Shown: one piece after another, positions 10,861-27,746 of the stretch | Layout of the letters: each line of letters starts with the position of its first letter | How positions within the stretch are numbered: position 1 is the first letter of the stretch | Source of the DNA: an uncultured Methylomirabilota bacterium | GTDB lineage: Bacteria > Methylomirabilota > Methylomirabilia > Methylomirabilales > 2-02-FULL-66-22 | Assembly (NCBI GenBank): GCA_963705305.1 | Contig: OY970067.1 | Coordinates: 1,856,001 to 1,920,000 of the forward strand | DNA: 64,000 bases | Direction of reading: 5' to 3' | Program-made: the position numbers and the translations under genes | Notes under the pieces: generated by a model | Told to the model about the DNA's origin: nothing | Database searches by the model: none | Seen by the model: the letters and a program-made list of their open reading frames with translations, nothing else

Positions 10861-13552
10861 GTGGCGCGAGCAGGCCCCCAAGACTCCGAGTGGCGCACCC
10901 GCAAGCGCCTGATCGACCCCAGACTGCGCGCTGCCGGCTGGCGGGTGGTGAAGTTTGACCCCACCCACCCGTTCGGCAAGTCCGATGCCCTCGCTGTCGA
11001 GGAGTTCCCCACCGACAACGGCCCCGCTGACTACGCCCTCTGCGTGGACGGCCGGCTCCTCGGCGTCGTCGAGGCCAAGAAGCTCACCCTCGGCCCGCAG
11101 AATGCCCTGACCCAAGCCGAGCGCTATTCCCGCGGGGCCACGGCGAGCCCCCTCGACTTCAGCGGTTTTCACGTTCCTTTCCTCTATGCCACAAACGGCG
11201 AGGTTCTCTGGCACCACGACGTGCGGCATCCCCAGAGCCGCTCGCGCCGGATCGCCCATTTCCACACCCCGGACGCCCTGCGCGAACTGCTTGCCCGCGA
11301 CACCGAGGCGGCCTGTGACCAGCTGCTCCTGACCCCGAACAACCATCCCCGCCTCCGCCCCTACCAGGGCGAGGCGAACGCCGCCATCGAGCAGGCTCTC
11401 GCCGATCGGAAACGGCACATGCTGGTCGCCATGGCCACGGGGACCGGCAAGACGTTCACGATGGTGAACGAGGTCTACCGCCTGATGAAGGCCGGCGTGG
11501 CCCGGCGGGTCCTCTTCCTGGTGGACCGGCGGGCCCTGGCGGCCCAGGCGGCGCGCGAGTTCGCCTCCTTCGAGGCCGAGCCGGGGAAGAAATTCACCGC
11601 CATCTACGAGGTGTACAGCCAGCGGTTCCGGCGGGAAGACGTTCGAGGGCGAGCCGTTCGACCCCAACGTCCTGCCGGTCTCGTATCTCACGGCGCCTCA
11701 GGCGAGCCACGCCTTCGTCTACATCAGCACCATCCAGCGGATGACCATCAACCTCTTCGGCCGGGCCGCGGCTTTCCCGGCCGGGGACGAGGAAGACGAG
11801 CCGGACGCCGACCGCCTGGACGTCCCCATCCATGCCTTCGACCTCGTCATCGCCGACGAGTGCCACCGGGGCTACACCGCCGCCGAGGTGGCCGTCTGGC
11901 GGAATACCCTGGAGCACTTCGACGCGGTGAAGATCGGCCTCACGGCGACCCCCGCTGCCCACACCACCAGCTACTTCACCAACCTCGTGTTCCGCTACGA
12001 GTACGAGCGGGCCGTGGGGGAAGGGTACCTGGTGGACTACGACGCCGTAGCCGTCCGGTCGGATGTCCGGATGCACGGGCTCTTCCTACCGGAGGGGCAG
12101 CAGGTCGGGATGGTGGACCCCGCCACGGGGGCGGAGCAGCTCGACCTCCTGGAGGCGGAGCGGCAGTACGACACGACCGACATCGAGCGCGGGGTGACCG
12201 CCCCGGACTCCAACCGGAAGATCCTGGAAGAGGTGCGGAGCTACGCCCGCGCCCACGAGGCAGAGTACGGCCGGTTCCCCAAGACGCTGATTTTCGCCGT
12301 TCACGACCTGCCCCACACCTCGCACGCCGACCAGCTTGTGGACCTCGCCCGGGACGTCTTCGGCCAGGGCGACAGCTTCGTCCAGAAGATCACCGGCCGG
12401 GTGGACCGCCCCCTCCAGCGCATCCGGGAGTTCCGCAACCGGAAACTGCCGGCCGTGGTCGTGACCGTGGACATGCTCTCGACGGGCGTGGACATCCCCG
12501 ACCTGGAGTTCATCGTCCTCCTCCGGCCGGTGAAATCGCGCATCCTCTTCGAGCAGATGCTGGGGCGGGGGACGCGCAAGGGCGAGCACTTCCCCGACAA
12601 GACCCACTTCACCGTCTTCGACTGCCTGGGTGGGTCGCTTCTGGAGTACTTCCGCAAAGTGACGGGCATCACCGCCGAGCTGCCCCTCAAAGAGACCCGG
12701 GCGATCGCGGAGCTCATCGAGGACATCTGGCAGAACCGGGACCGGGACTACAACACCCGCTGCCTGGTGAAGCGCTTCCACCGGATTGCCAAAGCCATGT
12801 CGGGGGACGCCCGGGACCTCTTCGCCCGGTTCGTCCCGCAGGGCGATCTCGGCGCCTTCGCCGCCGAGCTGCCCGCGCGCCTCACCCGGGAGTTCTCCGA
12901 CACCATGGCGATCCTGCGCGATCCCGACTTCCAGAAGCTGTTGGAGGATTACCCCCGGCAGGCACGGCCGTTCGTCGTGGCCTACGAGGCCCAGGACACC
13001 GTGGACAGCACCCGGCTGGTCCGCGGCCCCGATGGGACAGAGTACAAGCCCGACGATTACCTGGCGGCCTTCGCCCGCTTTGTGGCGGAGAACGCCGACG
13101 AGATCGCCGCCCTTCGGATCCTCCTGACCGCTCCCCGCGACTGGAACCCGCAGGCCCTCACGGAGCTGCGCAAGCGCCTGCTGGAGTCGTCGCGCCACTT
13201 TACCGAGGCCAGCCTCCAGCGGGCGCACGAGCTGCACTACCGGAAGGCGCTGGTGGACATCATCTCGATGGTCAAGCACGCGGCCCGGGAGGACGAGCCG
13301 CTCTTCACTGCGGGGGAGCGGGTCCAGCGGGCCTTTCTGCGGGTGACCGCCGGCCGGACGTTCACGGCGGAGCAGCAGGAGTGGCTGGACCGGATCCGGG
13401 TGCACCTGGTAGAGAACCTGTCCATCGAGCAGCAGGACTTCGACGATCTTCCCGTCTTCAGCCGGCACGGCGGCTGGGGCCGGGCCAACGGGGCGTTCAC
13501 TGACAGCCTGCCGGCGCTGCTGCGCGGGCTGAACGAGGCCATCGCGGCATGA
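10861..13552 (+). CDS. hsdR: Type I restriction subunit R (one extra base at ~11641)
   Basis: ADY...VEAKK, MATGTGKT, DECHRG, GLTATP and QMLGRGTR; removing G11641 joins the two ORFs. Confidence 0.9.
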
Positions 13553-14970
13553 GCAACGTCGTCCAAAAACTCTGGGGCTTCTGCCATACCCTCCGGCACG
13601 ATGGGATCGACCACGGAGACTACATCGAGCAGATCACGTATCTTCTCTTCATCAAGATGGCCGACGAGCGGGGCGTGGCCCTGCCGAAGGACACCGACTG
13701 GAGCAGCCTGACCAAACGGGCCGGGACGGACCTATCCGAGCATTATCAAGATGCGTTGCGGAGGCTCGGTAAGCAGGGGGGCATCCTGGGCGACATCTTC
13801 GCCGACGCCCAGTCCCGCTTCAACAACCCGGTCAACCTCAAGAAGCTTGTCACCCTGGTGGACGAGACCGAGTGGACGGCCCTGGAGGTGGACGTGAAGG
13901 CGGCAGCCTTCGAGGGGCTACTGGAGAAGGCGGCCAGTGAGGGCAAGAAGGGCGCGGGCCAGTATTTCACCCCCCGGATCCTGATCCAGACCATCGTCCG
14001 GTGTATGCGGCCCGATCCCCGGCCCCGGCGCGACTTCACCATCTGCGACCCCGCCTGCGGCACCGGCGGCTTCCTGGTGGCAGCGTACGAGTGGCTGATG
14101 GCGCAGACAAAAGGCGCGCTGGAGCGGGATGTCTGGAAGCGCGTGCGGAAGAGCACCTACTACGGCCAGGACCTCGTGGCCCGGCCTCGCCGCCTGGCCC
14201 TCATGAACCTTTTCCTCCACGGGCTGGAGCCGACGATCCACCTGGGAGACGCCATCTACGAGGCGCCGCGCTCGGAATGGTTCGATGTGGTGATGACCAA
14301 TCCCCCCTTCGGGACCAAGGGGGCGAATCAGGCGCCCGTCCGCGAGGACTTCACTGTCGCCACCTCGAACAAGCAGCTCAACTTCGTCCAGCATGTCCTG
14401 ACCCTCCTCAAGCCCGGCGGCCGGGCCGCCATCGTCCTGCCCGACAATTGCCTCTTCGCCGACCAGGCGGGCGAGGTCTTCAAGATCGTGGCCGAGGACT
14501 GCAACCTCCACACGATCCTCCGCCTCCCACGGGGCACCTTCACCCCCTATAGCCCCGGCGTGAAGGCCAACGTCGCCTTCTTCACCAAGGGCTATCCCAC
14601 CGAGACCGTCTGGATCTACGACGCCCGGACCAACGTCCCGGGGATCACCAAAAAGGATCGTCCCCTCGCCGAGTTCCACTTCGCCGAGTTCGAGAAGTGC
14701 TACGGGGCCGACCCCAACGGAGGACCGAAGCGGAAGCCTAGCGCTTCCAAGGAAGACCGTTGGCGCTCGTTCGGTATCGCCGAGGTCAAGGGGCGCGGCT
14801 TCAAGCTGGACAGTTTCAAGTGGCTGAAAGAGGAATCCCTAGAAGACCCCGACGACCTTCCCGAGCCCGAAGAACTCGCCACCGACGCCATCAGCGAGCT
14901 GGAGGCCGCGGTGGAAGAGCTGAATAAGGTGCTGGTCCTGCTGGAGAACGGGAACGGGGGCCAGGCATGA
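13549..14970 (+). CDS. hsdM: Type I methyltransferase subunit M
   Basis: GQYFTPR, DPACGTGGFL, TNPPFG. Confidence 0.95.
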   Translation: MSNVVQKLWGFCHTLRHDGIDHGDYIEQITYLLFIKMADERGVALPKDTDWSSLTKRAGTDLSEHYQDALRRLGKQGGILGDIFADAQSRFNNPVNLKKLVTLVDETEWTALEVDVKAAAFEGLLEKAASEGKKGAGQYFTPRILIQTIVRCMRPDPRPRRDFTICDPACGTGGFLVAAYEWLMAQTKGALERDVWKRVRKSTYYGQDLVARPRRLALMNLFLHGLEPTIHLGDAIYEAPRSEWFDVVMTNPPFGTKGANQAPVREDFTVATSNKQLNFVQHVLTLLKPGGRAAIVLPDNCLFADQAGEVFKIVAEDCNLHTILRLPRGTFTPYSPGVKANVAFFTKGYPTETVWIYDARTNVPGITKKDRPLAEFHFAEFEKCYGADPNGGPKRKPSASKEDRWRSFGIAEVKGRGFKLDSFKWLKEESLEDPDDLPEPEELATDAISELEAAVEELNKVLVLLENGNGGQA

Positions 14971-16553
14971 TGGCCATCACCGCAACAAAGCCCGATTTGC
15001 CCATTGAAGATTCATTGGATGTTGAGGAACTGCCTGAGGGGTGGTGCCTTGTCAGGCTGCCCGATGTTTGCGCCATCAATATGGGTCAGTCACCTCCAGG
15101 GAGAACCTATAACGAGAGGAGGGATGGCTTGCCCTTCTTTCAGGGCAAGGCGGATTTTGGGCCCCTTCATCCAACGGCTCGTAAGTGGTGTTCAGCACCA
15201 TCAAAGACTGCTCGCCCAGGCGACATCCTTATTTCAATTCGGGCACCTGTAGGTCCGACCAACATCGCCGATCAGACCTGCGCAATCGGCCGGGGTCTTT
15301 CTGCGTTGAGCCCGCTAGGCGGAATTCCCAGTCTCTTCATACTTTACGCTCTTCGGTTACAGGAAAAAGCCCTTGCCGAGCAAGGAACCGGCTCCACGTT
15401 TACAGCGATCACACGAGATCACCTAGAAGCCATTAGACTCAGGCTACCTCCTCTGGCCGAGCAGAAGCGGATTGTGGCAAAGGTAGAGGAGTTGCTCGCA
15501 CGCGTGAACGCCGGACGCGAGCGGCTGGCACGTGTCCCTGCCATCCTCAAACGCTTCCGCCAATCCGTCCTCGCCGCCGCCTGCTCGGGTCGCCTTACAT
15601 CAGACTGGCGCGACCAAGGGATCGGACAAGAGACAGAATTGAATAGGCGCCAAGCGGTGCTCAGAGAGCAACTCAATTACCGTGGAGGCGATACAAGGGG
15701 TGGAAATCGTAGCGCAAACAGAAAGGCTGGATCAGAATCTACCGAAGAGTCAATCGGCATCGATGTTAGCAATCTGCCTGAATTGCCCCGTGGGTGGATC
15801 TGGGTGTCACTTGATGCCCTTATCGCATATGGGCCGCAGAACGGCCTATATAAGCCAGCCTCAGACTATGGTGACGGTGTGCCTATTGTCAGGATCGAGA
15901 ATTACCAGGACGACTTTATCCAACCACGCAGCTCCCTCTTAAGGCTCCGCGCCAGCAGTGATGAGAGGTCCTTATACGGTCTCGAGTCTGGAGATTTGTT
16001 GGTAAATAGGGTGAATAGCCCAACACATCTCGGCAAGTCCATAGTCGTTCCTCAGAGTATTTGTCCGGCGGTTTTCGAGTCAAATATGATGAGGATTCGC
16101 GTGTCCGGGGCGGTAATGGCCGAGTGGTTGCATATGTATCTACGCAGTGATGACGGGCGTGCCAGATTGATAGCCGACGCGAAATGGGCCGTCAATCAGG
16201 CGAGTATTAACCAGACAGATGTCCGAAGTACCCCGGTACCGATTCCTTCAGTGGATGAACAACGTGAGGCAGTAAGGAGAACCAAGTCGCTCTTAAATTC
16301 AACTGAGAGAATTGCAAATCGAGTGACGGTAGCAACGTCATACGTGGAAAAAATGAGGCAAGGGATCCTGGCCGGGGCATTCCAGGGCGATTTGGTCCCG
16401 ACCGAGGCCGACTTGGCCCGTGCCGAAGGCCGCCCCTATGAATCCGCGTCTTGTCTCCTTGCGCGGATTCGCTCTGCCCGAACTGCGGAATCCTCGCAGA
16501 TGTCAAGGGCCAGTGATCTGGGGAATTCACGCAACCGCAGGGACGGAATGTGA
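14967..16553 (+). CDS. hsdS: Type I specificity subunit S
   Basis: Two TRDs separated by LPPLAEQKRIV...RFRQSVLAAACSGRLT; AFQGDLVP tail. Confidence 0.92.
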   Translation: MMAITATKPDLPIEDSLDVEELPEGWCLVRLPDVCAINMGQSPPGRTYNERRDGLPFFQGKADFGPLHPTARKWCSAPSKTARPGDILISIRAPVGPTNIADQTCAIGRGLSALSPLGGIPSLFILYALRLQEKALAEQGTGSTFTAITRDHLEAIRLRLPPLAEQKRIVAKVEELLARVNAGRERLARVPAILKRFRQSVLAAACSGRLTSDWRDQGIGQETELNRRQAVLREQLNYRGGDTRGGNRSANRKAGSESTEESIGIDVSNLPELPRGWIWVSLDALIAYGPQNGLYKPASDYGDGVPIVRIENYQDDFIQPRSSLLRLRASSDERSLYGLESGDLLVNRVNSPTHLGKSIVVPQSICPAVFESNMMRIRVSGAVMAEWLHMYLRSDDGRARLIADAKWAVNQASINQTDVRSTPVPIPSVDEQREAVRRTKSLLNSTERIANRVTVATSYVEKMRQGILAGAFQGDLVPTEADLARAEGRPYESASCLLARIRSARTAESSQMSRASDLGNSRNRRDGM

Positions 16554-17146
16554 TGACGGCAATTCGCTCGCCAATGAGCGCCGGAGGTGGTTGGCGGTTG
16601 ATTTCCCTGTATTCAAACTACCTGAATCTCGTGCGCCAGAATTTCGAGGAAAACAGGGCATTCGAAGCTATAACCATCTCCTGCATCTGCCTGGACGTCC
16701 TTCTTCATCAGATGGTCGATGGACTGGAGACAAATCACAAAGCGCAACTGGAGCCCGACCAGATTGAATGTATCCGTGGGATCAAGGCGAGGGCTCTGAC
16801 TGCAGGCCAGATTATCAAAGTTCTTGATGAGAGCAAGGTGCTCGATCGACGTCTTCTGAAAGCACTGAACAAATTGAATGAAATCCGGAATCTTCTGGTC
16901 CATCCAACCAAGGGCGATGGTCTTAAGGACGATGCAATTATTCCTCTTGCCGGACACTACAAGACGGAGCACATAGAATATGCTCGCAAAGTGTACCGGC
17001 TACTGTGCCACATTGTTGATGTGGCAGGCGGTAGCTCCCCTCGAAAAGATGACCGATACAAGGGGAGCTTCAGTCGGTCACTCGCACGGATGCAGCGGCA
17101 GAGGCGGGAAGCCTGTACTGAATTGCGGAAACGAAACAAAACCTAA
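16550..17146 (+). CDS. Hypothetical helical protein (possibly HEPN-like)
   Basis: Coupled to hsdS; LNEIRNLLVH resembles an RxxxxH motif. Confidence 0.55.
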   Translation: MMTAIRSPMSAGGGWRLISLYSNYLNLVRQNFEENRAFEAITISCICLDVLLHQMVDGLETNHKAQLEPDQIECIRGIKARALTAGQIIKVLDESKVLDRRLLKALNKLNEIRNLLVHPTKGDGLKDDAIIPLAGHYKTEHIEYARKVYRLLCHIVDVAGGSSPRKDDRYKGSFSRSLARMQRQRREACTELRKRNKT

Positions 17147-17320: not shown

Positions 17321-17503
17321 TGGGGACACTGCATTCTTATTAACTGGCAGGGCTCCTCGACCATGCTTCGAAACGCGGGGCTGGCGCACCCCGGGCGGCC
17401 CCTCGCCGTGATCCGCGAAGCGGCCCGCCGGGGGGCCGCGCATGCCCGGAAGTGGGGCCGCCTCCTCGGAGGCTAAGCGAGGCGAAGTAAATTGGAGCGT
17501 CCC
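17321..17503. repeat. GGGAC...GTCCC-bounded miniature element
   Basis: Inverted ends GGGACACTGCA / TGGAGCGTCCC; interior similar to 37640-37766. Confidence 0.7.
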
Positions 17504-17665
17504 GTATTCCATTGACGTGGGACGATTTCACGATCGATTACATCAAACCGCATAGCAAGGGCGGTCGAAGTCAACTAGAGAACGCGTTTTTAGTGTGCCG
17601 AGAGCGCAACTCCAAGAAAGGAAATTGGCGAAAGAAAAGGACTTCGAATTGATGGAGGGTGTCAC

Positions 17666-20212
17666 GTGTCTCCGGGAGATAAGCATTACGAGAACGAAGT
17701 GCGGGAGGCCATCGAGCGACTACTTTCGACCGGCATCAAAGAATTCACCGAGATTCTCAAAGCCCTCGGCGGAGCCGATCCGAAGCTCGTTCGTCAACTG
17801 CTGGACGAGATTGGGAATCGTCCGATCCTTGAACCTGTTTCATCCATCGATTCGTTTCGAGCCCGACGCCTCACCGCCGCGTTACCGTTGAAACTGCCAG
17901 CCCCCAATCCGATGGTCAGCCAGTGGTGGTTCACACTGGATACGGTATCCTTTCTGTCGAAAGATGTTTGGGAATTCGCCGGACATCAGCCTGCAGCATT
18001 TCTCGGCGCACCATCAGTTGCCTTCCATTACGCGCACTGCTACAACACACCTACAACCGTCCTCGACATCGACCCGGATGTTCTTCGCGCATTGGAACTT
18101 CCCGCTTCCGGAACGAAGCAAATATACGACGCGTCCTGCCCGATCCCGGAGGGTTTAGGGGGGAAACATTCGGTCGTCCTTGTGGATCCTCCCTGGTACA
18201 ACAGGGAGGTCCAACTCTTTATTGCGCGGGCACGGGAACTCCTTTTTCCCCAAGGATTTATCCTTTGCGTGTTGCCTTCTCGCCTAACCAGGGCGGGAGT
18301 TGTGGCTGATCGTAGTGAACTGCTCGCTCGACTTCTTGCCGCTCATTTCGAAATCGCGGCGTTGGACTCAGATTGCGTTGACTCTACTGTGCCAGAATTT
18401 GAATCCTGCGCATACTCCTCCATTCCGGGCTTTACTGGCAAGTCCTGGCGCCGGGGTGATCTGCTAGTACTCCGAGTGTCCGCAGAGTCTACCCTCACGG
18501 CAGGCCCAGTGTCTCCGTTCAGGATCGAGATCTTCTCCAGGGTTCCAGGGCGTCGTCGCTATTTCCTTGCGCCTGATCGGGTGACCGCCAAGATGCCGTC
18601 GTTTGTGGAGCAGGTGGCATCTTTTGAAACCACAGTCAGCATGCGAACGCCATCAATTGAGGCTGTCGCCGTCTGGGGCTCCAACAAGAAGGGTGTTCAG
18701 GTCCGTGACGCTGGGCTTGCGCGGCGCATTCTAGAACTCTGGCAATCAGGTAAGTCGATCAAAGAAGCCCTCAGCACCCTGGAGTCATCAGGGCCCCTCG
18801 ACCGAGAGGTCGAGGTCTTTGCGGGCGCGCTCGGCCTGTGGAGTGACGACGAGCAATCAACGAGGCGGCGTGGACCAGACGAGTTGGAGGCCCAAAGACA
18901 CAATACTCTTTCAGACGTAGCCGCGCATCCTACCGCACGGCAACACGAGTATGAGTCCGACGGGTTTCGCATATCCTTTCAGAGAGACAGGGACCGGATA
19001 TTGTGGTCGCATTCCCTGAGGCGATTGGCAAACAAGACCCAGCTGTTTCCAGTCAGGAGCGACGACCATCTTCGACGCCGGCTTGCGCACACAATCGAGG
19101 TTATGCAACTTGCGACAACCATCGCTGCCGCGTTCGGGCTCGACCATCAATTGACTGAAGCTGGCGCACTGGCTCACGATCTCGGGCACGCACCGTTTGG
19201 GCATGCTGGGGAGCACGCCATTGATGCCGTGCTGAATGAGATAAACCCGCATCTGAACGGATTCAACCACTACGAGCATGGGGTGGACGTGGTCCGGTGG
19301 CTTGAGGACGTTTATCAATCTCCTGGAGCTGGCGGCTTCCCAGGTCTCAATCTGACTTTCGAAGTGATTGAGTGTATTTTCAAACATACCTACTTTCGAG
19401 GGGACGAGAAGTTGGGCCAGCGCTGGCTTTCCACGAGAACAAAGCATGAAGACCTTGCGAATGACTTATCCTGTCATATGGAGGGCCAGGCGGTACGAAT
19501 TGCCGACAAAGTGTCGTATTTCATTTCTGACCTTGAGGACGGCATACGTAACGGCATCATTGATCTTCCGGCTTTGATGGAATGCAAGTTCTTTCATCGG
19601 CCGCCAATTGACCTGATACCGAGCCATCACGAGTCGCTGTACGAACGCTTCATTTCACAGAGAAGGGCTGTTTTAAAGGTCATAATGGAGGATATCCTGA
19701 CAGCCACAGACAGGAGGATCGCGAGGTTCAAGAGCCTCAGTGATCTGCGGTCCGACAATTCGTATGTCGTGGTGTACTCAGACGGCCTGGCAGAAGACAT
19801 ATCGGAGGTATGGCGGAATTTACAGGTTGGCATCTTGCATAGGGATGCGGGCGTGGTCGCGGCGAATAATCGCGCGGCGAAGGTTGTGAGTGATCTCCTC
19901 CTTGTGTATGCCGTTGCGCCGCATCTTGTTGAGGAGCGGTTCAGAAGGATGCATGCACGTTTGCAGGATTCCGACTACATGAAATGGTACGTTGCACAGA
20001 TCGGTCCACACGTAGCACTATCTAAGCGCCGCGTGAGCACGATTGCGTATGAATATGCGATCGGCGGGCAACTGCAGTCTCAGAGCGAGAATTGGCTAAT
20101 CCCGACGAAGGACCTTATCCAGGCGAAGGATTACGTGGCGAGTCTGACAGACACGCGAGCGCTATCTGAACATCGCACTCATTGCGGAACCCTCTGGGAG
20201 TCCGGGGACTAG
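17666..20212 (+). CDS. Fusion of a methyltransferase-like domain and an HD-family dGTP triphosphohydrolase
   Basis: N-terminal FLGAPS, VLDID and LVDPPWY; C-terminal FQRDRDRI, NKTQLF, RLAHTIEV, AHDLGHAPFGHAGE, DLEDG and DYVASLTD. Confidence 0.85.
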   Translation: MSPGDKHYENEVREAIERLLSTGIKEFTEILKALGGADPKLVRQLLDEIGNRPILEPVSSIDSFRARRLTAALPLKLPAPNPMVSQWWFTLDTVSFLSKDVWEFAGHQPAAFLGAPSVAFHYAHCYNTPTTVLDIDPDVLRALELPASGTKQIYDASCPIPEGLGGKHSVVLVDPPWYNREVQLFIARARELLFPQGFILCVLPSRLTRAGVVADRSELLARLLAAHFEIAALDSDCVDSTVPEFESCAYSSIPGFTGKSWRRGDLLVLRVSAESTLTAGPVSPFRIEIFSRVPGRRRYFLAPDRVTAKMPSFVEQVASFETTVSMRTPSIEAVAVWGSNKKGVQVRDAGLARRILELWQSGKSIKEALSTLESSGPLDREVEVFAGALGLWSDDEQSTRRRGPDELEAQRHNTLSDVAAHPTARQHEYESDGFRISFQRDRDRILWSHSLRRLANKTQLFPVRSDDHLRRRLAHTIEVMQLATTIAAAFGLDHQLTEAGALAHDLGHAPFGHAGEHAIDAVLNEINPHLNGFNHYEHGVDVVRWLEDVYQSPGAGGFPGLNLTFEVIECIFKHTYFRGDEKLGQRWLSTRTKHEDLANDLSCHMEGQAVRIADKVSYFISDLEDGIRNGIIDLPALMECKFFHRPPIDLIPSHHESLYERFISQRRAVLKVIMEDILTATDRRIARFKSLSDLRSDNSYVVVYSDGLAEDISEVWRNLQVGILHRDAGVVAANNRAAKVVSDLLLVYAVAPHLVEERFRRMHARLQDSDYMKWYVAQIGPHVALSKRRVSTIAYEYAIGGQLQSQSENWLIPTKDLIQAKDYVASLTDTRALSEHRTHCGTLWESGD

Positions 20213-20270: not shown

Positions 20271-22269
20271 GTATGCCGTGGATACTCTGGAACTCGCCGG
20301 TGGAAGTCCGGCCCCGGGAGCGGGCAGCGCGCCCGGGTAGCTCGAGGGAGGTGCGAGGGGTAACCCAAGGCATCGAGTTCCCTGACGAGCGCGTCCGACG
20401 GACGTGCGCAACCTCGCAGGCCGTAGCGTGCAGCGAACCCAGGGGTAGCCTCGTTAACTTCAGTGAGGGCGTCGACTCCGTTGTCCGGGGAGGAAGACCG
20501 GTGCTTGGGTGACCACCGCGGCTGTCGGGTCATCTGAGGCCCTCCGGGGTAGCAGGGATGGCATGCGGGGACAGCTTCAGAGGGCACCACGGGAGAGCCT
20601 GGCCAGTGGCCCACAGGAGGCCAACCGGGGCGTATAAGGCACCGCCGAAGTCGCCGCCGGGCTGCCCAGGCAGTCGGAGCGGCCCACAGTACCGCCAGCA
20701 CCCGACGGACAACACAACCGTTGGGGAGGGAAGGGGCCGTGCTCTCACCACGCTTCCCACGGCGGGACGCGAGGAGGATTGCTGTGAGGCTTGAACCTCC
20801 AGAAGCAGTGCGCACCCTCCAGCGGAAGCTTTACTGCAAGGCCAAGTCGGAGCCCACCTTCCGGTTCTACCTCCTCTACGACAAGGTCTATCGGGCGGAC
20901 CTCCTGGGTCACGCCTGGGCCTTGGTGCGCGCGAACGGGGGCGCCGCCGGTGTGGATGGCGTCACCATCGCCGCCGTCGAGGCGGACGGGGTCGGTCCGT
21001 TCCTCGCGCGTCTGGCCGAGGAACTCCGGACGCACACCTACCGAACCGATCCCATCCGGCGTGTAATGATCCCCAAGCGGAAGGGCGGGGAGCGGCCCCT
21101 CGGCATCCCCACCGTGCGGGACCGAGTAGTCCAAGCGGCCACCGTCTTGGTCCTGGAGCCGATCTTCGAGGCGGACTTCCAGCCGTGCTCCTACGGCTTC
21201 CGGCCGAAGAAGGACGCGCACCAGGCCCTGGCGGAGATCTCCCGCACGCTCGCGCAGGGCTACACGCAGGTGCTCGACGCCGACCTCACGGCCTACTTCG
21301 ACTCGATTCCGCACGGCCAACTCCTGGCGGCGGTGGCGCGCCGCGTGACGGACCGGGCCATCCTCCGGCTCTGCACGCAGTGGCTTCGCGCCCCGGTGGT
21401 GGTCGAGCGGGACGACGGGAAGCGGGAGACGCGAGGCGGCAAGCGGACTCGCCGCGGGACGCCACAGGGTGGGGTGATCTCCCCGCTGCTCGCGAACGTG
21501 TACCTCCACGCCTTCGATAGGGCGTGGCGAGCGGGCGGGCTGGAGCGTCGCTGGCAGGCCCGGCTCATCCGGTACGCCGATGACTTCGTGGTGTGCTGTC
21601 GGGCGAAGGCGGCCCAGGTGCAGGCGGTCGTGGCGGAGCAGCTCCAGGCGCTCGGGCTGACGCTGAATCCGGCGAAGACCCGATGCCTGGATGCGCACCA
21701 GCAGGCCTTCACCTTCCTCGGGTTCACGGTGCGGCTCGTGCGGAGCCCACGGACAGGGCGCCTGTTTCCTCTGATCCGTCCCTCCGCCGCTGCCCGCCAG
21801 CAGCTCCGGGACCGGGTAAAGGCCCTCACCGGCCGCGACCACCTGGCGCTGCCGACCCCGACGCTCATCACGGCGGTCAATCAGGTCGTCCGCGGATGGG
21901 CGGGGTACTTCCATTTCCAACACTGCACGCGCGACTTCAGCGCTCTACGGTGGTTCATCGAGGAACGGGTCCGGACGTACCTGCGGCGCAAGCACCGCCA
22001 TCGGACGCGAGCGTACCAGGCGCTCCCGTGCACTGTGCTCTACGGGCGTCTGGGGCTCTACCGGTTGCCCGTGCGGGCGCCCTGGACCCCTCCGACGCAT
22101 GCCGGGCGGTGAAGGTGACCGGAGAGCCGGATGCGGGCAAACCGCACGTCCGGTTCGATGAGGGGGCGCTGGGGCTCGAGCAGGGTCGGGCTCGTGAGGC
22201 ACCGCCAGACGAAAGGGGCGGGAACAGCTAGGCGCGACCTACCCTCGAATAGCCAGTGCTCTACTCTAC
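20271..22269 (+). mobile_element. Full-length group II intron (class F-like, tentative)
   Basis: 5' GTATGCCG; RT ORF; DV GAGCCGGATGCG..CGCACGTCCGGTTC; long DVI ending CTCTAC; joined flanks rebuild the uninterrupted repeat seen at 22794-22830. Confidence 0.9.
20784..22112 (+). CDS. ltrA: Group II intron reverse transcriptase/maturase, no endonuclease domain
   Basis: GVDG, RPLGIPTVRDR, SYGFRP, GTPQGGVISPLLANVYL, RYADD, GWAGYF; RBS GAGGAGG. Confidence 0.95.
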   Translation: MRLEPPEAVRTLQRKLYCKAKSEPTFRFYLLYDKVYRADLLGHAWALVRANGGAAGVDGVTIAAVEADGVGPFLARLAEELRTHTYRTDPIRRVMIPKRKGGERPLGIPTVRDRVVQAATVLVLEPIFEADFQPCSYGFRPKKDAHQALAEISRTLAQGYTQVLDADLTAYFDSIPHGQLLAAVARRVTDRAILRLCTQWLRAPVVVERDDGKRETRGGKRTRRGTPQGGVISPLLANVYLHAFDRAWRAGGLERRWQARLIRYADDFVVCCRAKAAQVQAVVAEQLQALGLTLNPAKTRCLDAHQQAFTFLGFTVRLVRSPRTGRLFPLIRPSAAARQQLRDRVKALTGRDHLALPTPTLITAVNQVVRGWAGYFHFQHCTRDFSALRWFIEERVRTYLRRKHRHRTRAYQALPCTVLYGRLGLYRLPVRAPWTPPTHAGR

Positions 22270-23162
22270 CCCTTTGGTCGCTAACTGCTTGAATTCCTTG
22301 AGAGGCGGTTTCGATTCTTGGCAGATTGTGGGTCTGGCGAGGACGGTGAAGAGGGATCGGACAGCATGCCGTGGATACGCTGGAACTCGCCGGTGGAAGT
22401 CCGGCCTCGGGAGTGGGCGTGCTCCCCGCGCCGCCCAGTTCCTGGGGGACGTTGTTGACTCAGTGGACTTGCCGACTGAGCGGAGGCGCCGAAAACTGCT
22501 GTCGGCCGTGCTTCGCATAATCAGGTGAGGGCTATCCCAAGCTCCTGAAGGCTCCCGATGACGCGCAGGCAGTTCTCGACGAGCTGGAACGCCTCACGGT
22601 GGTGGCACTGGCCGGGGAGGGGCGCTGTCTCCTGGGGCACCCGGGCAATAATTCCAGGGGACGTTGTTGACTCAGTGGACTTGCCCATCGAGGAAAAAGA
22701 TACCGACGCGATGCCAGTTCCTTGGACCTGGCGTCTCAGGGACGCTGGTCATGAGGCGCGGAGAGAGCCAGGCAGGTACGAATGTGGGTCTGTAAAAAGG
22801 GTACTGGACACTTTTGGGTCGCTAATTGCTTGAATTCCTTGAGGAGCGGCTTCAATTCTTGACCAAGGATGTGTTTGGCGAGGACGTTGAAAAGGGTGCC
22901 GGACAGCGTGCCGCAATTACGGGACGATGCTGCTTTACTTGTATTACGGTCTAATTTCCCAGGCCGGCGCCTCGGGCCGCGCCGCCCGGGCGGGGATCGC
23001 CTATATCTGAGTGGAGCGCCTCGGTCATCCCTGGCGGCCCCTCGCCGCGGTCTTGGGGATCTGCCGCGCCATGGCCTACCTGGGGGTGCGGGGCGGTGCA
23101 GAGGTTGGAGCGGAATCGCCCCCCGTGTCGCCAGGGCAAGGCGACGTAGATTGCAATGTCCC
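22270..23162 (+). repeat. Cluster of composite repeats: target-repeat units, intron 5' stubs and GGGGAC modules
   Basis: 22270-22363 resembles 22811-22905; intron stubs at 22364 and 22906; identical GGGGACGTTGTTGACTCAGTGGACTTGCC at 22445 and 22657; GGGAC..GTCCC element at 22921-23162. Confidence 0.85.
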
Positions 23163-23261
23163 GCACTTCATCCGGAGAATGCCGGAGATACAGAACCCGC
23201 GGTCCAGAGGAGAAGGCTCGCCTGAGCTCGCAAGATAAGGCTGCAGGTGTGAGGGAGTGAA

Positions 23262-24221
23262 ATGGCCAAAATCTTTGGTGGCAGGTGGAAGGTCAGGGAG
23301 GACTTAGAGACCGGCGGACAAGCGCATGTATATATCGTCCAGGATTCACGTGGAGAGGGGAGCGATCTGTACGTCCTAAAAAGATTGAAGAACCATAATC
23401 GGCTCAGCCGATTTGAGAAAGAAGTAAAAGCCGGAATGAAGCTCAAGCATCCCGGAATTGCGCCGATCGTGGCTTACTCGCTTTCCGAGCCATCGTACTA
23501 CGTCACGAATTACTATCGAGGCGGAACACTGACGAAAAGAGTTGAGGCTGGCGTGATGGCATCGCTTGATGCGCTTGTCCTTTTCGTTGAATTGTGCCAG
23601 ATCGTCCACTATGCACACTCGCAGGGGATCTTTCATCGAGACTTGAAGCCGGACAACATCGTTTTCGACGAAGATGATAACCCTATTATTATAGACTTTG
23701 GTCTGTGCTATTTCACGGATGAGGATAACCGACTGACGGAAACAATGGAGCAGGTAGGGTCCCGATTCTACATGGCTCCGGAAATGGAGAGGGGACGGTT
23801 GACAGAGGTGACTTCGGCGGTCGACTCATACTCACTCGGGAAGGTGCTTTATTTCATGCTAACCGGAAGGCACATTGCCAGAGAGGCATTCGCAGATCTT
23901 TCCGCCATCACTAGTGCTGCTCAATTGGAGTATGTGTCGGAGAGGATCCTAGCGCAGACCATAGTCGAAGATCCCGCCCGAAGACTTACGCCCGAGAAAT
24001 TAATCCCCATTGTTGAGACTGTATACAGGCTGATCGCAGAGCACTTCTATCCCGGCATTCAAGGTTCTTTATGCAGGTATTGCGGTGAAGGGACATATGG
24101 GCAAGGGATTGAGACGGTAATGCGCTTGCACGAGCCCGGGGTTGAACACTCGGTGACGTTCGATGCTTACATCTGTGGAAGATGCGGAAATGTCCAGTGG
24201 TTCCGACGGCAGAGGGGGTAG
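23262..24221 (+). CDS. Hanks-type Ser/Thr kinase with C-terminal zinc ribbon
   Basis: VLKRL, HRDLKPDN, DFG, YMAPE; CRYC...CGRC. Confidence 0.9.
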   Translation: MAKIFGGRWKVREDLETGGQAHVYIVQDSRGEGSDLYVLKRLKNHNRLSRFEKEVKAGMKLKHPGIAPIVAYSLSEPSYYVTNYYRGGTLTKRVEAGVMASLDALVLFVELCQIVHYAHSQGIFHRDLKPDNIVFDEDDNPIIIDFGLCYFTDEDNRLTETMEQVGSRFYMAPEMERGRLTEVTSAVDSYSLGKVLYFMLTGRHIAREAFADLSAITSAAQLEYVSERILAQTIVEDPARRLTPEKLIPIVETVYRLIAEHFYPGIQGSLCRYCGEGTYGQGIETVMRLHEPGVEHSVTFDAYICGRCGNVQWFRRQRG

Positions 24222-24250
24222 GGAGGAACGGAGTAATGCTGTGAATGGAA

Positions 24251-24404
24251 CTGGACAGTATGCCGTGGATACTCTGGAACTCGCCGGTGGAAGTCCGGCC
24301 CCGGGAGCGGACTTCGTCGTGAGCCCAGCCGAATAGCAACGCGCGGTGGGCCATCCGGCCTTCATGGCATCCTATGCCGCCCGACGGCGGGTTCGGCGAA
24401 GAAT
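24251..24404 (+). repeat. Target repeat + 55-nt intron 5' stub + shared tail
   Basis: CTGGACA|GTATGCCGTGGATACTCTGGAAC...; tail shared with 26032-26192. Confidence 0.85.
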
Positions 24405-24477
24405 GGGAGCCATACCCTCTTTAAATCACGAGGCTACGCCATATATGGTGCGCGTACCTTTTTTGCGGGAGCTAATC

Positions 24478-25977
24478 ATGCTTAATGAACAACAACGCCA
24501 GCGGGCATTGACGGCACTGCATCAATACCAAGAAGCGCGGAACCTTGTGCAAGAGGATGAGACGCTGGACCAACAACGCATGGCGCTGATCGAGAGCGAT
24601 TTAAGGCCGTTAGTTCAGTCCTACCTTGGAGGTGCCACCGAACTGTCTGAATTCAAATCGAGAATTGACAGCCTAAACAAGCTTAATCCTTTTTGGGGCT
24701 TCAAGGGTATCAAGGGCCAAATGTTCTTTAACATGGTGGTGAACGTAGCCGATAACCCGAAAGAATGCGATCAGGAAATCAAGTCTGCGGTTGCCCTGCC
24801 CACTAACGAGCAGATTGCCTCCAGTCGCATAAAAACCTTTGCCAGCTACGTGCAGCGACTTGGCGAGCAATGGGTGAGTGCTGGCAATACCCGATATGGT
24901 TGCCCGAAGCTCGGCAGTATCCCCTTTTTCCTCTCCTACTTCTGGCAGATCCAGAATCGCGACACCTGGCCCGTGTACTACACTAATACAAACGCATTTT
25001 TTATTGATGATACACGCTCCGGCTTAGCGTTCGTATCTGCGGCCTTCCACGCGGAGCGGGAAAGGCCCCTGACAGGCAATGGGCCGGGGCCACGTAACAG
25101 GAATTCATGCGTTTGTATTAGCAGTATCAATGCCATGGTAGACCTGAACCTTTGGCAACCCTCTGGTGAAATGGCCGAGGACTACTTGGCGTACAAGCGA
25201 CTGCATGAAGATTTGGGCCGGCTATTTGCCTCGGAGACCGGCCGTGGCTTTCAGCTCTACGATGTCGAGCACGTTTTCTGGTTCAAAGCCGGTAATCCGT
25301 ACGGGGCTGCACGGGCCGAAGAAGGGCGCGCTGCCAGCCACGACCTTGGAGCGCAGGCAAGCACAGGCGCGACCGATGACTCGAGTCGACTTCCTGAAAG
25401 CTATGTTCCGTCAATCGTGGCCATTCTTCCGCGCATCGCGCGGCATGAAGCTGGTCTTGAAGACCTCGCCAGGCAATCGGGCACAACCCTGGAGCGTGCG
25501 TTCGAGAAGTATATCGATGCGGCGTTGACCATGCTTGGCTATGAGACGAAGTTGCTGGGGCAGGGTCAAGGGCGCGTTCCGGACGGAGTAGCCGTGGCCT
25601 TGGACGACAGCTATGCGATTCTGTGGGACGGCAAGATTCGCCGCGGCGGGTACAGCATGGGGACGGATGATCGCACGATCCGCGAGTACATCTCGACTCA
25701 AAGCCGGGAACTGAAGCGGCGACGCTCGCTCAGGAATATCTACTATGTTGTCATCTCGAGCACATTTGTCGATGATTTCGACGAGTCTATTAGGTCTATT
25801 AAGATGGAAACCGACGTAAACGAGGTTGTATTGGTCGAAGCGGATGCCTTGGTTGCCATGGTCGATGCGAAACTGCGATCGCCTCTTCAAATATCTCTTG
25901 GCCCTGACGGCCTGTAGCGGCTATTCAGTTCAAGTGGAATTGTCAGCGCAAGTACCGTTATTGAGCAGTTGGTCTAG
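24478..25977 (+). pseudogene. Restriction endonuclease-like gene (FokI-type PD-DxK C-terminal domain) with an in-frame MITE and a premature TAG at 25915
   Basis: VPDGVA...ILWDGK...GYSMGTDDRTIREYI; the frame continues 19 codons past the TAG. Confidence 0.65.
24986..25118. mobile_element. 133-bp IS630/Tc1-type MITE
   Basis: TIR ATACAAACGCAT / ATGCGTTTGTAT flanked by a TA duplication. Confidence 0.85.
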
Positions 25978-26226: not shown

Positions 26227-27746
26227 CCCTAATCTCCGGCTAAGAAGTTGAGGGGGATCGCGAATCACGCAGCGGCCCGCAGTGCGCGCGGCCCGCGGGG
26301 TTGGCATCGGCCTTGCTTGGTTTCACCCAGTGGGTGCAAACACCACAAGGAGGAGAGCGATGCCCGACACCTCGCCCCGGTTGCCGTTCGAGATCGATGA
26401 CGCGATCGACCCCACGCTGGTCACGGGCCGGGCCGGGGTCCCGCTCGTGATCGAGCTGTTCCGCCAGCTCGGGGTGGCCCAGGCCGTCGACACCCACGTT
26501 GCGGTCAAGCAGCGGCAGCGCGGATTACCCCCCTCGCAGCTCGTGGAGAGTCTCGTCGCGTTGTGGACGAGCGGCGGGGACCGCTGCCAGGACCTCACGA
26601 CGCTCCGGGAGGATCAGGCCCTGGCCACGCTGCTCGGCTACCCCCTGCCGGCCGCGACCACGGTCCGGGACTTCCTCGAGGCCTTCCACGTGGAGGACGG
26701 GCCGCTCTGGGTGGCCGGGCCCGCGGCCACGGTCCCCCTGGAGTCCGCCCCCTTGGCGGGCCTCGGACAGGCGAACCGGACGCTGGTCGCGGGCGTCCAG
26801 CGCGGGGCCCGGGCGGCGACGGCCACCCTGGATGTGGACGCGACGCTCGTCGAGAGCCACAAGGACGCGGCGACCGTGGCCTACGACGGGACCCGGGGCT
26901 ACCAGCCCGTCGTGGTCCTCTGGGCCGAGCACGATGTCATCGTGCACGACCAGTTCCGCGATGGCCAGGTGCCCGCCGGGTGCGGCAACGTGCGCGTCCT
27001 CGAACAGGCGGTGGCCAACTTGCCCCAGGGCGTGGACCGCATCTCCCTGCGGGCCGACAGCGCCCTCTACGAGACGGAGGTCCTCCGCTGGTGCGAGGAG
27101 AAGAAAATCGCCTACGCGATTAGCGCCGATATGTCCGCGCAGCTCCAGGCCGAGATCCGGCGCCTCCCCGCGGCCGCCTGGCAGCTCGAGCGGGAGGAGC
27201 CCGAGGCGATCCGGGCCTGGGCCGAAGTCCCCTACGTCCCCGAGGATGGCGATCACCGGAAGGCGCGGCCGTGCGTTCGCCGCTACCTCGCGGTGCGTAT
27301 CCAGCGACGCCAGGGGAGCCTCTTCGCCGACGGGAGTAGCGTGCAGTACTTCGCCGTGGTCACCAATCGGCCGGAGGATGGGCTCACGATCCTCCGGTGG
27401 CACCGGGAGAAAGCAGGGACCATCGAGCACACCCATCACGTCCTCAAGACCGAGCTGGCGGCCGCCGCGCTGCCCAGTGGGAAGTTCGGGGCGAACGCCG
27501 CCTGGTTCCGGCTGAACGTGCTCACCTACAACCTGCTCACCGCGCTCAAGCGGTTGACCTTACCCGGAGATCTCCGGACCGCCCGGCCGAAGCGTCTCCG
27601 GTTCCTGCTGTTCAACACCGTCGGGAAGGTCGTCGCGCATGCCCGACGGACGCTCTTGCGGCTCTCGGGCGCCCTGCAGCACGCCTTGCTCGTCCGGGCG
27701 CGGCGCAAGATCGCCCGGCTGGCCACCGCTTAGCCGGAGATTAGGG
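26227..27746 (+). mobile_element. IS1380-family element
   Basis: Perfect 18-bp TIRs CCCTAATCTCCGGCTAAG / CTTAGCCGGAGATTAGGG; no TSD. Confidence 0.9.
26360..27733 (+). CDS. IS1380 transposase
   Basis: TLDVDAT, LRADSALY, KAGTIEHTH, FGANAAWF; RBS AAGGAGG. Confidence 0.92.
   Translation: MPDTSPRLPFEIDDAIDPTLVTGRAGVPLVIELFRQLGVAQAVDTHVAVKQRQRGLPPSQLVESLVALWTSGGDRCQDLTTLREDQALATLLGYPLPAATTVRDFLEAFHVEDGPLWVAGPAATVPLESAPLAGLGQANRTLVAGVQRGARAATATLDVDATLVESHKDAATVAYDGTRGYQPVVVLWAEHDVIVHDQFRDGQVPAGCGNVRVLEQAVANLPQGVDRISLRADSALYETEVLRWCEEKKIAYAISADMSAQLQAEIRRLPAAAWQLEREEPEAIRAWAEVPYVPEDGDHRKARPCVRRYLAVRIQRRQGSLFADGSSVQYFAVVTNRPEDGLTILRWHREKAGTIEHTHHVLKTELAAAALPSGKFGANAAWFRLNVLTYNLLTALKRLTLPGDLRTARPKRLRFLLFNTVGKVVAHARRTLLRLSGALQHALLVRARRKIARLATA

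Follow-up and report, generated by a model that had tools for sequence, protein, structure and literature searches.

The 64,000-nucleotide window analysed here, positions 1,856,001 to 1,920,000 of contig OY970067.1 from an uncultured Methylomirabilota bacterium (assembly GCA_963705305.1), encodes an 848-amino-acid (aa) protein in which an S-adenosylmethionine (SAM)-dependent transferase-like module is fused to a deoxynucleoside triphosphate (dNTP) triphosphohydrolase (dNTPase) of the HD type. The same two parts recur as a single protein in other phyla and as a pair of adjacent genes, and the fusion is probably an undescribed variant of dNTP-depletion anti-phage defence with a conserved enzymatic partner. 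The reading that we prefer, with moderate confidence, is a single-gene defence system in which the HD domain would act as effector, with the transferase module as a dedicated partner that controls it or works alongside it.

The fusion is conserved and has a two-gene counterpart

An earlier prediction, made from the letters of this stretch (hereafter the original prediction), had placed one open reading frame (ORF) of this length at 17666-20212 on the forward strand, and the ORF is present there, uninterrupted and with a GTG start codon. A word-indexed search with residues 1-430 returned 20 other proteins of 847-1035 aa in which both halves are present, and their N-terminal parts are 40-49% identical to the query, with one exception at 30%. 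Across the whole protein, 20 full-length homologues stand at 36-57% identity, with the N-terminal, linker and C-terminal regions all conserved. When one genome per prokaryotic species was scanned, 15 fusion loci were found, distributed over Acidobacteriota, Thermotogae, Binatia, Bacillota, Asgard archaea, Gammaproteobacteria, Bacteroidota, Nitrospirota and Myxococcota. The gene is a single uninterrupted ORF of 834-1053 aa at 11 of the 15 loci, while the remainder are cut by a contig end or apparently interrupted. Two homologues of the latter kind, L014:9905-12425 (631 + 88 aa) and L009:28-2284 (284 + 444 aa), may be pseudogenes or assembly errors. In the Asgard variants (P0019, P0023 and L005), a kinase is fused ahead of the module and dNTPase, and an ASCH gene lies upstream.

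To place the fusions among their relatives, a FastTree phylogeny was built from 128 module sequences with Shimodaira-Hasegawa (SH)-like supports, for which the tool flagged long-branch warnings. Three groups were obtained. Operon-type stand-alone proteins form one clade (57 rows), and the remaining stand-alone proteins form a second (34 rows). The third group, also of 34 rows and with an SH-like support of 99, contains every one of the 25 HD fusions in the tree, that of the window among them, along with seven short proteins, which are probably fragments, and two other long proteins. In the second stand-alone clade, the module gene is directly followed by a separate HD and HD_assoc gene (441-473 aa) at all eight loci, often with overlapping stop and start codons, and the separate HD protein and the fused dNTPase domain share 32% identity (E 3e-54). 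The existence of both a fusion form and an operon form is the strongest evidence that the two parts work together. Whether the fusion recurs in other genomes had been put forward as a check in the original prediction, and the conserved full-length homologues and the split two-gene form answer it; an assembly artefact or a chance ORF is ruled out by the same evidence. At two Planctomycetota loci, a homing-endonuclease-like protein with HNH_3 and AP2 domains is encoded directly upstream of the split unit (L101:4819-5472 and L102:4988-5659).

Within the genus the fusion is rare. A full-length homologue (49% identity) was found in one of 20 same-genus genomes and a weak match to the HD part only in one more, with no match in the other 18, which indicates that the function is dispensable in the genus. 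A sequencing-run search listed no RNA runs containing the fusion sequence, only metagenome DNA runs, with shares of at most 0.22.

The N-terminal module is a predicted SAM-dependent transferase

An AlphaFold2 (AF2) model of the module was built from a 75-sequence alignment (predicted local distance difference test (pLDDT) 91.4, predicted template modelling score (pTM) 0.89), and from this model a class I SAM-dependent transferase-type fold can be assigned confidently within the N-terminal 425 residues. A VIA structural search against representatives placed BpsA (5xnc_A) first, with Z 25.0 and a root-mean-square deviation of 2.8 over 225 aligned residues, followed by METTL5 (6h2u_A, Z 19.8) and PH1948 (1wy7_A, Z 18.1), and then by class I methyltransferases including TrmN, Trm11, PrmC and TYW2 at Z 14-16. 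These results agree with the methyltransferase fold that had been proposed for the N-terminus. The matches to BpsA, METTL5 and PH1948 cover residues 60 to 274 or 327. Foldseek concurs, with BpsA entries at E ~3e-11, and a profile search of PDB sequences also led to BpsA (E 7e-6), with motif I, motif II and D-P-P aligned. DNA methyltransferases are not among the top structural rows of VIA or Foldseek, which excludes nothing; both result lists are dominated by the Rossmann core.

Outside the core, the model features a three-helix N-terminal domain, which we would label helix-turn-helix (HTH)-like, and the Foldseek alignment to BpsA extends over about 320-334 columns and so takes in the N-domain of BpsA. 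The C-subdomain is modelled as a beta-rich segment followed by three helices (residues ~288-390, with helices at 349-389) and carries the family-wide motifs VS-x-R (324-327) and W337. The core motifs are SQWWF (85-89), FLGAPS (112-117), VLDID (132-136), YD (154-155) and DPPWY (174-178), of which the second, third and last had been pointed out in the original prediction.

Across 75 diverse module sequences, D174, P176 and W177 are invariant, as are the substrate-side residues W87, R209, F245, E246, W261 and S325, and conservation at G114 and D155 reaches 90% or more. In an alignment of 21 fusions the invariant positions are Q86-W-W-F89, G114, P116, D134, D136, D174-P-P-W-Y178, T208-R209, W261-R262 and G264-D-L-L267. 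Only one stretch of the module is variable, about 25 residues long, and there is no hypervariable target-recognition region. Invariance of the catalytic D-P-P-W and of the substrate-side residues, and not only of the SAM pocket, argues that the transferase works and does not just sense SAM passively, and from its sequence the module would be a SAM-dependent amino-group transferase with its catalytic motifs intact. Enzymes with a (D/N)PP(Y/F/W) motif are established as acting on planar amino groups, and by analogy the DPPW motif, the motif I Gly and the motif II/III Asp of the module would fit a transferase with this type of target.

Although the module is closest in fold to BpsA, its motifs indicate that it is not a BpsA orthologue, because LGDDD is replaced by LG(A/T)P and DPPE by an invariant DPPW. 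Pfam analysis matched PF10237 (N6-adenineMlase) at residues 84-194 of the fusion protein (34.2 bits, cut-off 23.2), a match that spans only profile positions 5-115 of 166. The same family is carried by only 19-32% of the members of the nearest ESM Atlas clusters, which are annotated only generically ("methyltransferase / hypothetical").

The C-terminal half is a predicted dNTPase of the Dgt family

Pfam analysis of the fusion protein also identified an HD domain (residues 472-615) and HD_assoc. The NCBIfam model TIGR01353 (dGTP_triPase) was matched with 166.3 bits, above its cut-off of 152.35, over profile positions 2-387 of 389, and the PADLOC dGTPase profile, for which that library holds no curated cut-off, was matched over positions 28-370 of 395 (E 5.3e-53). 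The best sequence match in the PDB by phmmer is 2dqb, a Thermus thermophilus dNTPase (E 9e-35), which is also the best structure in Foldseek (E 2e-14, TMt 0.75-0.77), ahead of E. coli Dgt, the L. blandensis dGTPase and CloA. The full-length AF2 model of the fusion protein has a pLDDT of 80 and a pTM of 0.77.

The HD domain had been described as complete-looking, and the metal-ligand and catalytic residues are indeed all there: H475, H504, D505, H508, H513, E516 and D614 do not vary among 21 sequences and align with the same motifs of 2dqb. By sequence, the C-terminal half is thus predicted to be a catalytically intact HD dNTP triphosphohydrolase of the Dgt family, nearest to the short Dgt / Tt-dNTPase class.

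The fusion is patchily distributed and found among defence and mobile genes

As had been noted in the original prediction, the gene is more AT-rich than its surroundings, with a G+C (GC) content of 0.553 compared with 0.65-0.72 in the flanks and 0.636 over the whole window. The low-GC region around it in the window also has insertion sequence (IS) elements, and Pfam and PADLOC scans of the neighbouring genes indicate a defence or mobile island, in line with the defence island that had been proposed. No conserved partner gene was found beside the fusion, as the neighbours differ at all 15 loci. The PADLOC scan of the homologue neighbourhoods, an analysis that the original prediction had recommended, took in 58 of 71 neighbour ORFs; those left out lie farther away, and most of them have housekeeping Pfam matches. 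Defence models match neighbours at eight of the 15 loci: a complete CBASS system (L006), Wadjet JetABCD directly upstream (L010), Drt8 and a TIR protein (L011), PDC-S11 (L012), PDC-S19 (L013), SoFic (L014), PDC-M58A (L015) and PDC-S48/DEDDh (L004). A further locus, L008, is a small integrase/RepA/NikA island.

Viral contigs provided another full-length homologue (L109:6705-9233, 38% identity), which is encoded on the opposite strand in a P2-like prophage (myovirus), between the tail-fibre-assembly and tail-sheath genes. This insertion site is presumably the position of the Z/fun locus on the P2 map. P2 Z/fun is named as a defence locus in PMC13586616. Taken with the rarity within the genus, this circumstantial evidence is consistent with the fusion being an accessory, defence-linked gene.

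Adjacency to type I restriction-modification (R-M) genes, another feature noted in the original prediction, holds for the window, where hsdM and hsdS lie upstream of the fusion. The functional link that had been built on it, involving both type I R-M and phage SAM lyases, is not supported: none of the 71 neighbour ORFs at the 15 other loci matches HsdM, HsdS or HsdR, which shows that this adjacency is particular to the window. A coupling of the fusion to type I R-M was therefore rejected, and hsdM and hsdS are neighbours, not partners, of the fusion.

Stand-alone modules are encoded in a conserved operon

An exhaustive HMMER search with a 13-sequence module profile returned 2103 representative proteins at E <=1e-3, including 537 at E <=1e-30. 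The 150 best of the 2103 matches were sorted by a simple HD-motif test into 26 fusions, 99 stand-alone proteins (370-520 aa) that comprise the whole module, 20 fragments and five other long forms. Most of the family members stand alone and are encoded in a conserved operon. The stand-alone proteins share the motifs of the fusion: (D/Q)W(R/W)F, LGxP, DPPWY, TRP, PxFE, WRxGDL, VSRR and WTS. No specific NCBIfam or PADLOC model was found for the module or its stand-alone relatives, which give weak RsmD or mad2 matches in the catalytic region only. Unusual architectures include P0065, in which the N-terminal part of the module is followed by an Rhs-associated core and then an unknown C-terminus, P0160, a fusion of the module with ASCH (P0128 is its sister), and P0140, a fusion of HTH_XRE with the module.

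The neighbours of the operon-type stand-alone genes were parsed for 77 of 79 loci. A radical SAM gene is adjacent in 61 of the 77, and an ASCH gene, a P-loop nucleotide kinase gene or both are present in 63; DUF4186 is encoded in 47, an HTH_XRE-M78 peptidase regulator in 39 and a dCTP-deaminase-like protein in 12. The usual operon order is HTH_XRE-M78 peptidase (~485 aa), DUF4186 (~200 aa), radical SAM (~335 aa), module (~420 aa), ASCH (~180 aa) and AAA_17/18 nucleotide kinase (~180 aa), and in a variant the dCTP-deaminase-like gene replaces the regulator. These operons (loci L016-L094; for example L024:2878-8298, L046:2800-8340 and L078:2861-8311) are found in Bacteroidota, Acidobacteriota, Cyanobacteria (including plasmids), Planctomycetota, Chloroflexota, the Candidate Phyla Radiation (CPR) and Actinomycetota. 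An atypical context is seen in Streptomyces viridochromogenes (L049:4373-9007), where a stand-alone module without a radical SAM or ASCH gene has a thymidylate-kinase-like gene upstream and an Orn/DAP-type pyridoxal phosphate (PLP) decarboxylase gene downstream.

The radical SAM protein of the operon has an invariant CxxxCxxC motif and weakly matches 5wgg among PDB sequences (E 0.003). In PADLOC it also weakly matches pVip (E 9e-6, cluster-binding region only), and the operon kinase bears a generic resemblance to VakA, a viperin-associated kinase, and to the kinase part of dCTPase. The radical SAM-module-ASCH-kinase operon matched no PADLOC system. In a pattern-limited scan of viral contigs, none of the 30 pattern-matching stretches encodes an operon-type stand-alone module relative. 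According to PMC7641849, ASCH is a PUA-like domain that reads modified bases, and ASCH with AAA_17 forms a recurrent dyad beside predicted base-modifying enzymes. Since the module accompanies nucleotide-converting enzymes in every setting, we infer a nucleotide or nucleotide-like substrate, and the many invariant arginines of the module would fit an anionic ligand.

A dNTP-depletion model and its alternatives

In the preferred model, the HD triphosphohydrolase would remove dGTP or several dNTPs, leaving phage DNA unable to replicate. The N-terminal module would bind SAM and modify a nucleotide or nucleotide-like ligand, and this SAM-dependent reaction would switch, restrain or complement the dNTPase, which SAM may gate. 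The model would have a precedent in Clover, where a nucleotide product of CloB restrains a dGTPase: Yamaguchi et al. (2025, bioRxiv 10.1101/2025.07.09.663793) name p3diT as the CloB product that restrains the dGTPase CloA.

A direct association of the two halves was modelled by folding them as separate chains, which gave a docking score of 0.49 compared with 0.00 for the best control. The mark applied is reached by 116 of 157 solved complexes and two of 215 mismatched pairs, and the band at or below 0.60 contains 18 of the 157 solved complexes together with both passing mismatches. Agreement between the runs is at least 5% of contacts, with a partner pLDDT of 76 or higher. These models lend weak support to a defined interface between the two halves.

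Several observations weigh against the depletion model. The support from docking is weak, with a score of 0.00 in one of the three runs. The anti-phage dGTPase model NF041026 was matched with 107.5 bits, far under its 400-bit cut-off, and over residues 426-577 only, which places the HD domain in the Dgt family but outside that anti-phage dGTPase subfamily. No recognised defence neighbour is present at seven of the 15 loci, several of which are on contigs of less than 6 kb. The characterised members of PF10237 are, we assume, protein-lysine methyltransferases, and the substrate of the module could be a nucleotide, DNA, RNA or a protein. Lastly, the fusion is the sole TIGR01353-type gene of the 5.65-Mb genome, which leaves room for a housekeeping role in the dNTP pool.

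A wider interpretation, which we hold only tentatively, is that the module represents an undescribed and widespread family of SAM-dependent nucleotide-modifying enzymes common to three conflict-system architectures: the six-gene operon, the two-gene module and dGTPase unit, and the fused module-dGTPase. A methyl or alkyl mark on a nucleotide would here act as an immune signal or decoy, and would gate nucleotide-destroying or nucleotide-poisoning effectors. If true, the nucleotide signalling of Clover, CBASS and Thoeris would have a counterpart that is based on methylation.

The operon also suggests an alternative that we regard as unlikely, in which the protein carries out a two-step nucleotide-modification or antiviral-nucleotide pathway. 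The module would methylate or alkylate a dNTP or nucleoside base, the HD domain would remove the competing canonical dNTP or dephosphorylate the product, and the fusion would be a cut-down version of the radical SAM-module-ASCH-kinase operon. The company of radical SAM, nucleotide kinase, ASCH and dCTP-deaminase-like genes around the stand-alone relatives, the existence of kinase-module-dNTPase fusions and the resemblance of the operon proteins to VakA and, weakly, to pVip would all be expected. However, the fusion mostly stands alone, without kinase, radical SAM or ASCH genes, and the pVip match is weak and confined to the cluster-binding region. Nucleotide-replacement pathways are typical of phages, yet no operon-type relative was found in the pattern-limited scan of viral contigs.

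Should the module only bind SAM, it could instead serve, along the lines of the original prediction, as a guard that holds the dNTPase off until phage SAM lyases, which disarm type I R-M, lower SAM and release dNTP depletion. The conserved SAM-pocket motifs and the type I R-M genes that adjoin the fusion in the window are compatible with such a guard, as is the precedent of small-molecule control of a dGTPase in Clover. It is nevertheless rather improbable: the R-M genes are not seen among the 71 neighbour ORFs at the 15 other loci, the same module is found in operons without a dNTPase, and the invariance of D-P-P-W, W87, R209, F245, E246, W261 and S325 would be needless for a pure SAM sensor.

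That the protein has a housekeeping role in the dNTP pool, carries an accessory domain that methylates RNA or protein, and is located in a mobile island by chance, would account for the single Dgt-family gene in the genome and for an HD domain closest to the widespread short Dgt / Tt-dNTPase class. We consider this distinctly improbable given the near absence of the gene from its own genus, its foreign GC content, a patchy phyletic spread from Acidobacteriota to Asgard archaea, and its defence-gene neighbours and occurrence as prophage cargo. Finally, an R-M-like discrimination, in which the module would methylate host DNA or sense unmethylated phage DNA through its helical domains so that unmodified DNA switches the dNTPase on, could draw on the helical N- and C-subdomains, the many invariant arginines, a weak similarity to the MADS methyltransferase mad2 and the crystallisation of E. 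coli Dgt with DNA effector molecules (title of 4x9e), but is very improbable for a module with only ~25 variable residues, C-subdomain motifs conserved across the family and closest folds among small-molecule and RNA enzymes instead of DNA methyltransferases.

Features of the window around the fusion gene

The features of the fusion gene and its surroundings are collected in Table 1. The two hsdR frames match different parts of PDB 3h1t: the N-terminal part, in the frame of 10861, matches residues 115-250 and the helicase C-terminal part, in the frame of 11741-13552, matches residues 297-561. The restriction subunit may be inactive, or the split may be a sequencing error. A 198-aa ORF (16550-17146) overlaps the hsdS stop codon and features a HEPN-like R-x4-H motif (RNLLVH) together with a weak Pfam match of the HepT type (E 0.0015, below the cut-off); this ORF may be a HEPN gene carried along in the R-M operon. 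Directly 5' of the fusion gene, a 53-codon open frame without a start codon (17491-17652) looks like a gene remnant, reading as the C-terminal half of an HNH nuclease (..DYIKPHSKGG..N..C..NSKKGN).

Downstream, a group II intron begins 82 nucleotides past the fusion stop codon, and its GC content (0.695) is host-like, unlike the low-GC island on either side. A second low-GC block (22558-25917, GC 0.553) includes two small unknown ORFs, a 319-aa Ser/Thr kinase like MADS6 and PD-T4-6 (PADLOC E 3e-42 for the latter), and a 523-aa protein whose C-terminus weakly matches the FokI cleavage domain, and may be another defence module. It is followed by a DDE transposase (26282-27733).

Table 1. Predicted features of the fusion gene and adjacent elements (window coordinates)
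Feature	Position	Strand	Basis
hsdR, split over two reading frames (apparent frameshift)	10861..13552	+	Pfam; PDB 3h1t matches
hsdM (13549-14970) and hsdS (14967-16553)	13549..16553	+	Pfam; PADLOC
Shine-Dalgarno-like GGAGGG, 6 nucleotides 5' of GTG	17654..17659	+	Read from sequence
Fusion gene: transferase-like module and dNTP triphosphohydrolase	17666..20212	+	Single ORF, 848 aa
Three-helix N-terminal domain, aa 1-50	17666..17815	+	DSSP helices 3-21, 27-34 and 39-49 in model
Class I SAM-dependent transferase core, aa 60-274	17843..18487	+	VIA matches; conserved motifs
Conserved C-subdomain of module and linker	18488..18940	+	Alignment of 75 sequences; DSSP on model
Dgt / Tt-dNTPase-type HD triphosphohydrolase, aa 426-848	18941..20209	+	phmmer against PDB; Foldseek
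Group II intron, with reverse transcriptase/maturase ORF (20721-22112)	20294..22269	+	Rfam RF02003 and RF00029; Pfam RVT_1 and GIIM

Comparison with known systems

The original prediction knew of no description of such a fusion, and our literature searches agree, having found none of the fusion, the two-gene form or the stand-alone operon. The module family and the six-gene operon may be more novel than the fusion itself. How dNTP-depleting defence enzymes are held inactive in healthy cells and activated on infection is known for few systems, for example through allosteric dNTPs in SAMHD1 and p3diT in Clover. Here a dNTPase is coupled repeatedly, by fusion and in an operon, to a specific SAM-dependent transferase that is apparently active, which would point to a new principle of control that can be tested. 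Through the module, the dNTPase is also connected with a large and strongly conserved operon of radical SAM, ASCH and kinase genes, which has no name and had no match among the systems of the libraries searched, and in this way one protein could open a family of nucleotide-centred conflict systems.

On the transferase side, the module resembles BpsA / DUF43 (5xnc, 6j27; PF01861) in its helical N-domain, Rossmann core and D-P-P motif IV. It differs from these enzymes in both motif I and the last residue of motif IV, as described above; PF01861 is absent from the Pfam matches of the fusion protein at E <=0.01, and no polyamine gene context was found among the neighbour ORFs of the fusion loci. 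With METTL5, PrmC, Trm11/TrmN and the EEF1AKMT1-like proteins of PF10237 it shares the fold (Z 14-20), the motif order I-II-III-IV and DPPW, but unlike these it has an extra N-domain, a 150-aa conserved C-subdomain and a wholly different gene context.

On the dNTPase side, the closest relative of residues 426-848 by both sequence and structure is TT1383 of Thermus thermophilus (2dqb), which, unlike the fusion, is a 376-aa stand-alone protein without the N-terminal module. The stand-alone anti-phage dGTPase reported by Tal et al. in 2022 defends by dNTP depletion. The fusion is like it in having a Dgt-family HD domain with its catalytic residues, in matching the PADLOC profile for dGTPase and in being found in defence islands or a prophage. 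It is set apart by the conserved 425-aa transferase module, fused or encoded just upstream, by a score under the NF041026 cut-off (107.5 versus 400 bits) and by an HD domain that is nearer to the short Tt-dNTPase class.

Regulatory partners of dNTPases offer the nearest parallels. A 2026 survey (PMC13519002) catalogues dGTPase fusions with TIR, NLR, CARD, death, SIR2 and SAM domains, and the protein described here is like these fusions and SAMHD1 in joining a dNTPase effector to an N-terminal regulatory or sensor module. A methyltransferase fusion is not mentioned in the main text of that survey, where "methyl" occurs 0 times. The parallel with Clover (CloA and CloB; PDB 9p8t/9p8u) is that of a dNTPase with a dedicated partner enzyme, and CloA is among the structural matches of the HD domain. 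In Clover, the partner enzyme makes a small-molecule product that regulates the defensive dGTPase. No CloB-type nucleotidyltransferase was found among the neighbours of the window gene or of the 15 loci; in contrast to Clover, the partner here has a SAM-dependent transferase fold instead of being a nucleotidyltransferase, and is usually fused to the dNTPase.

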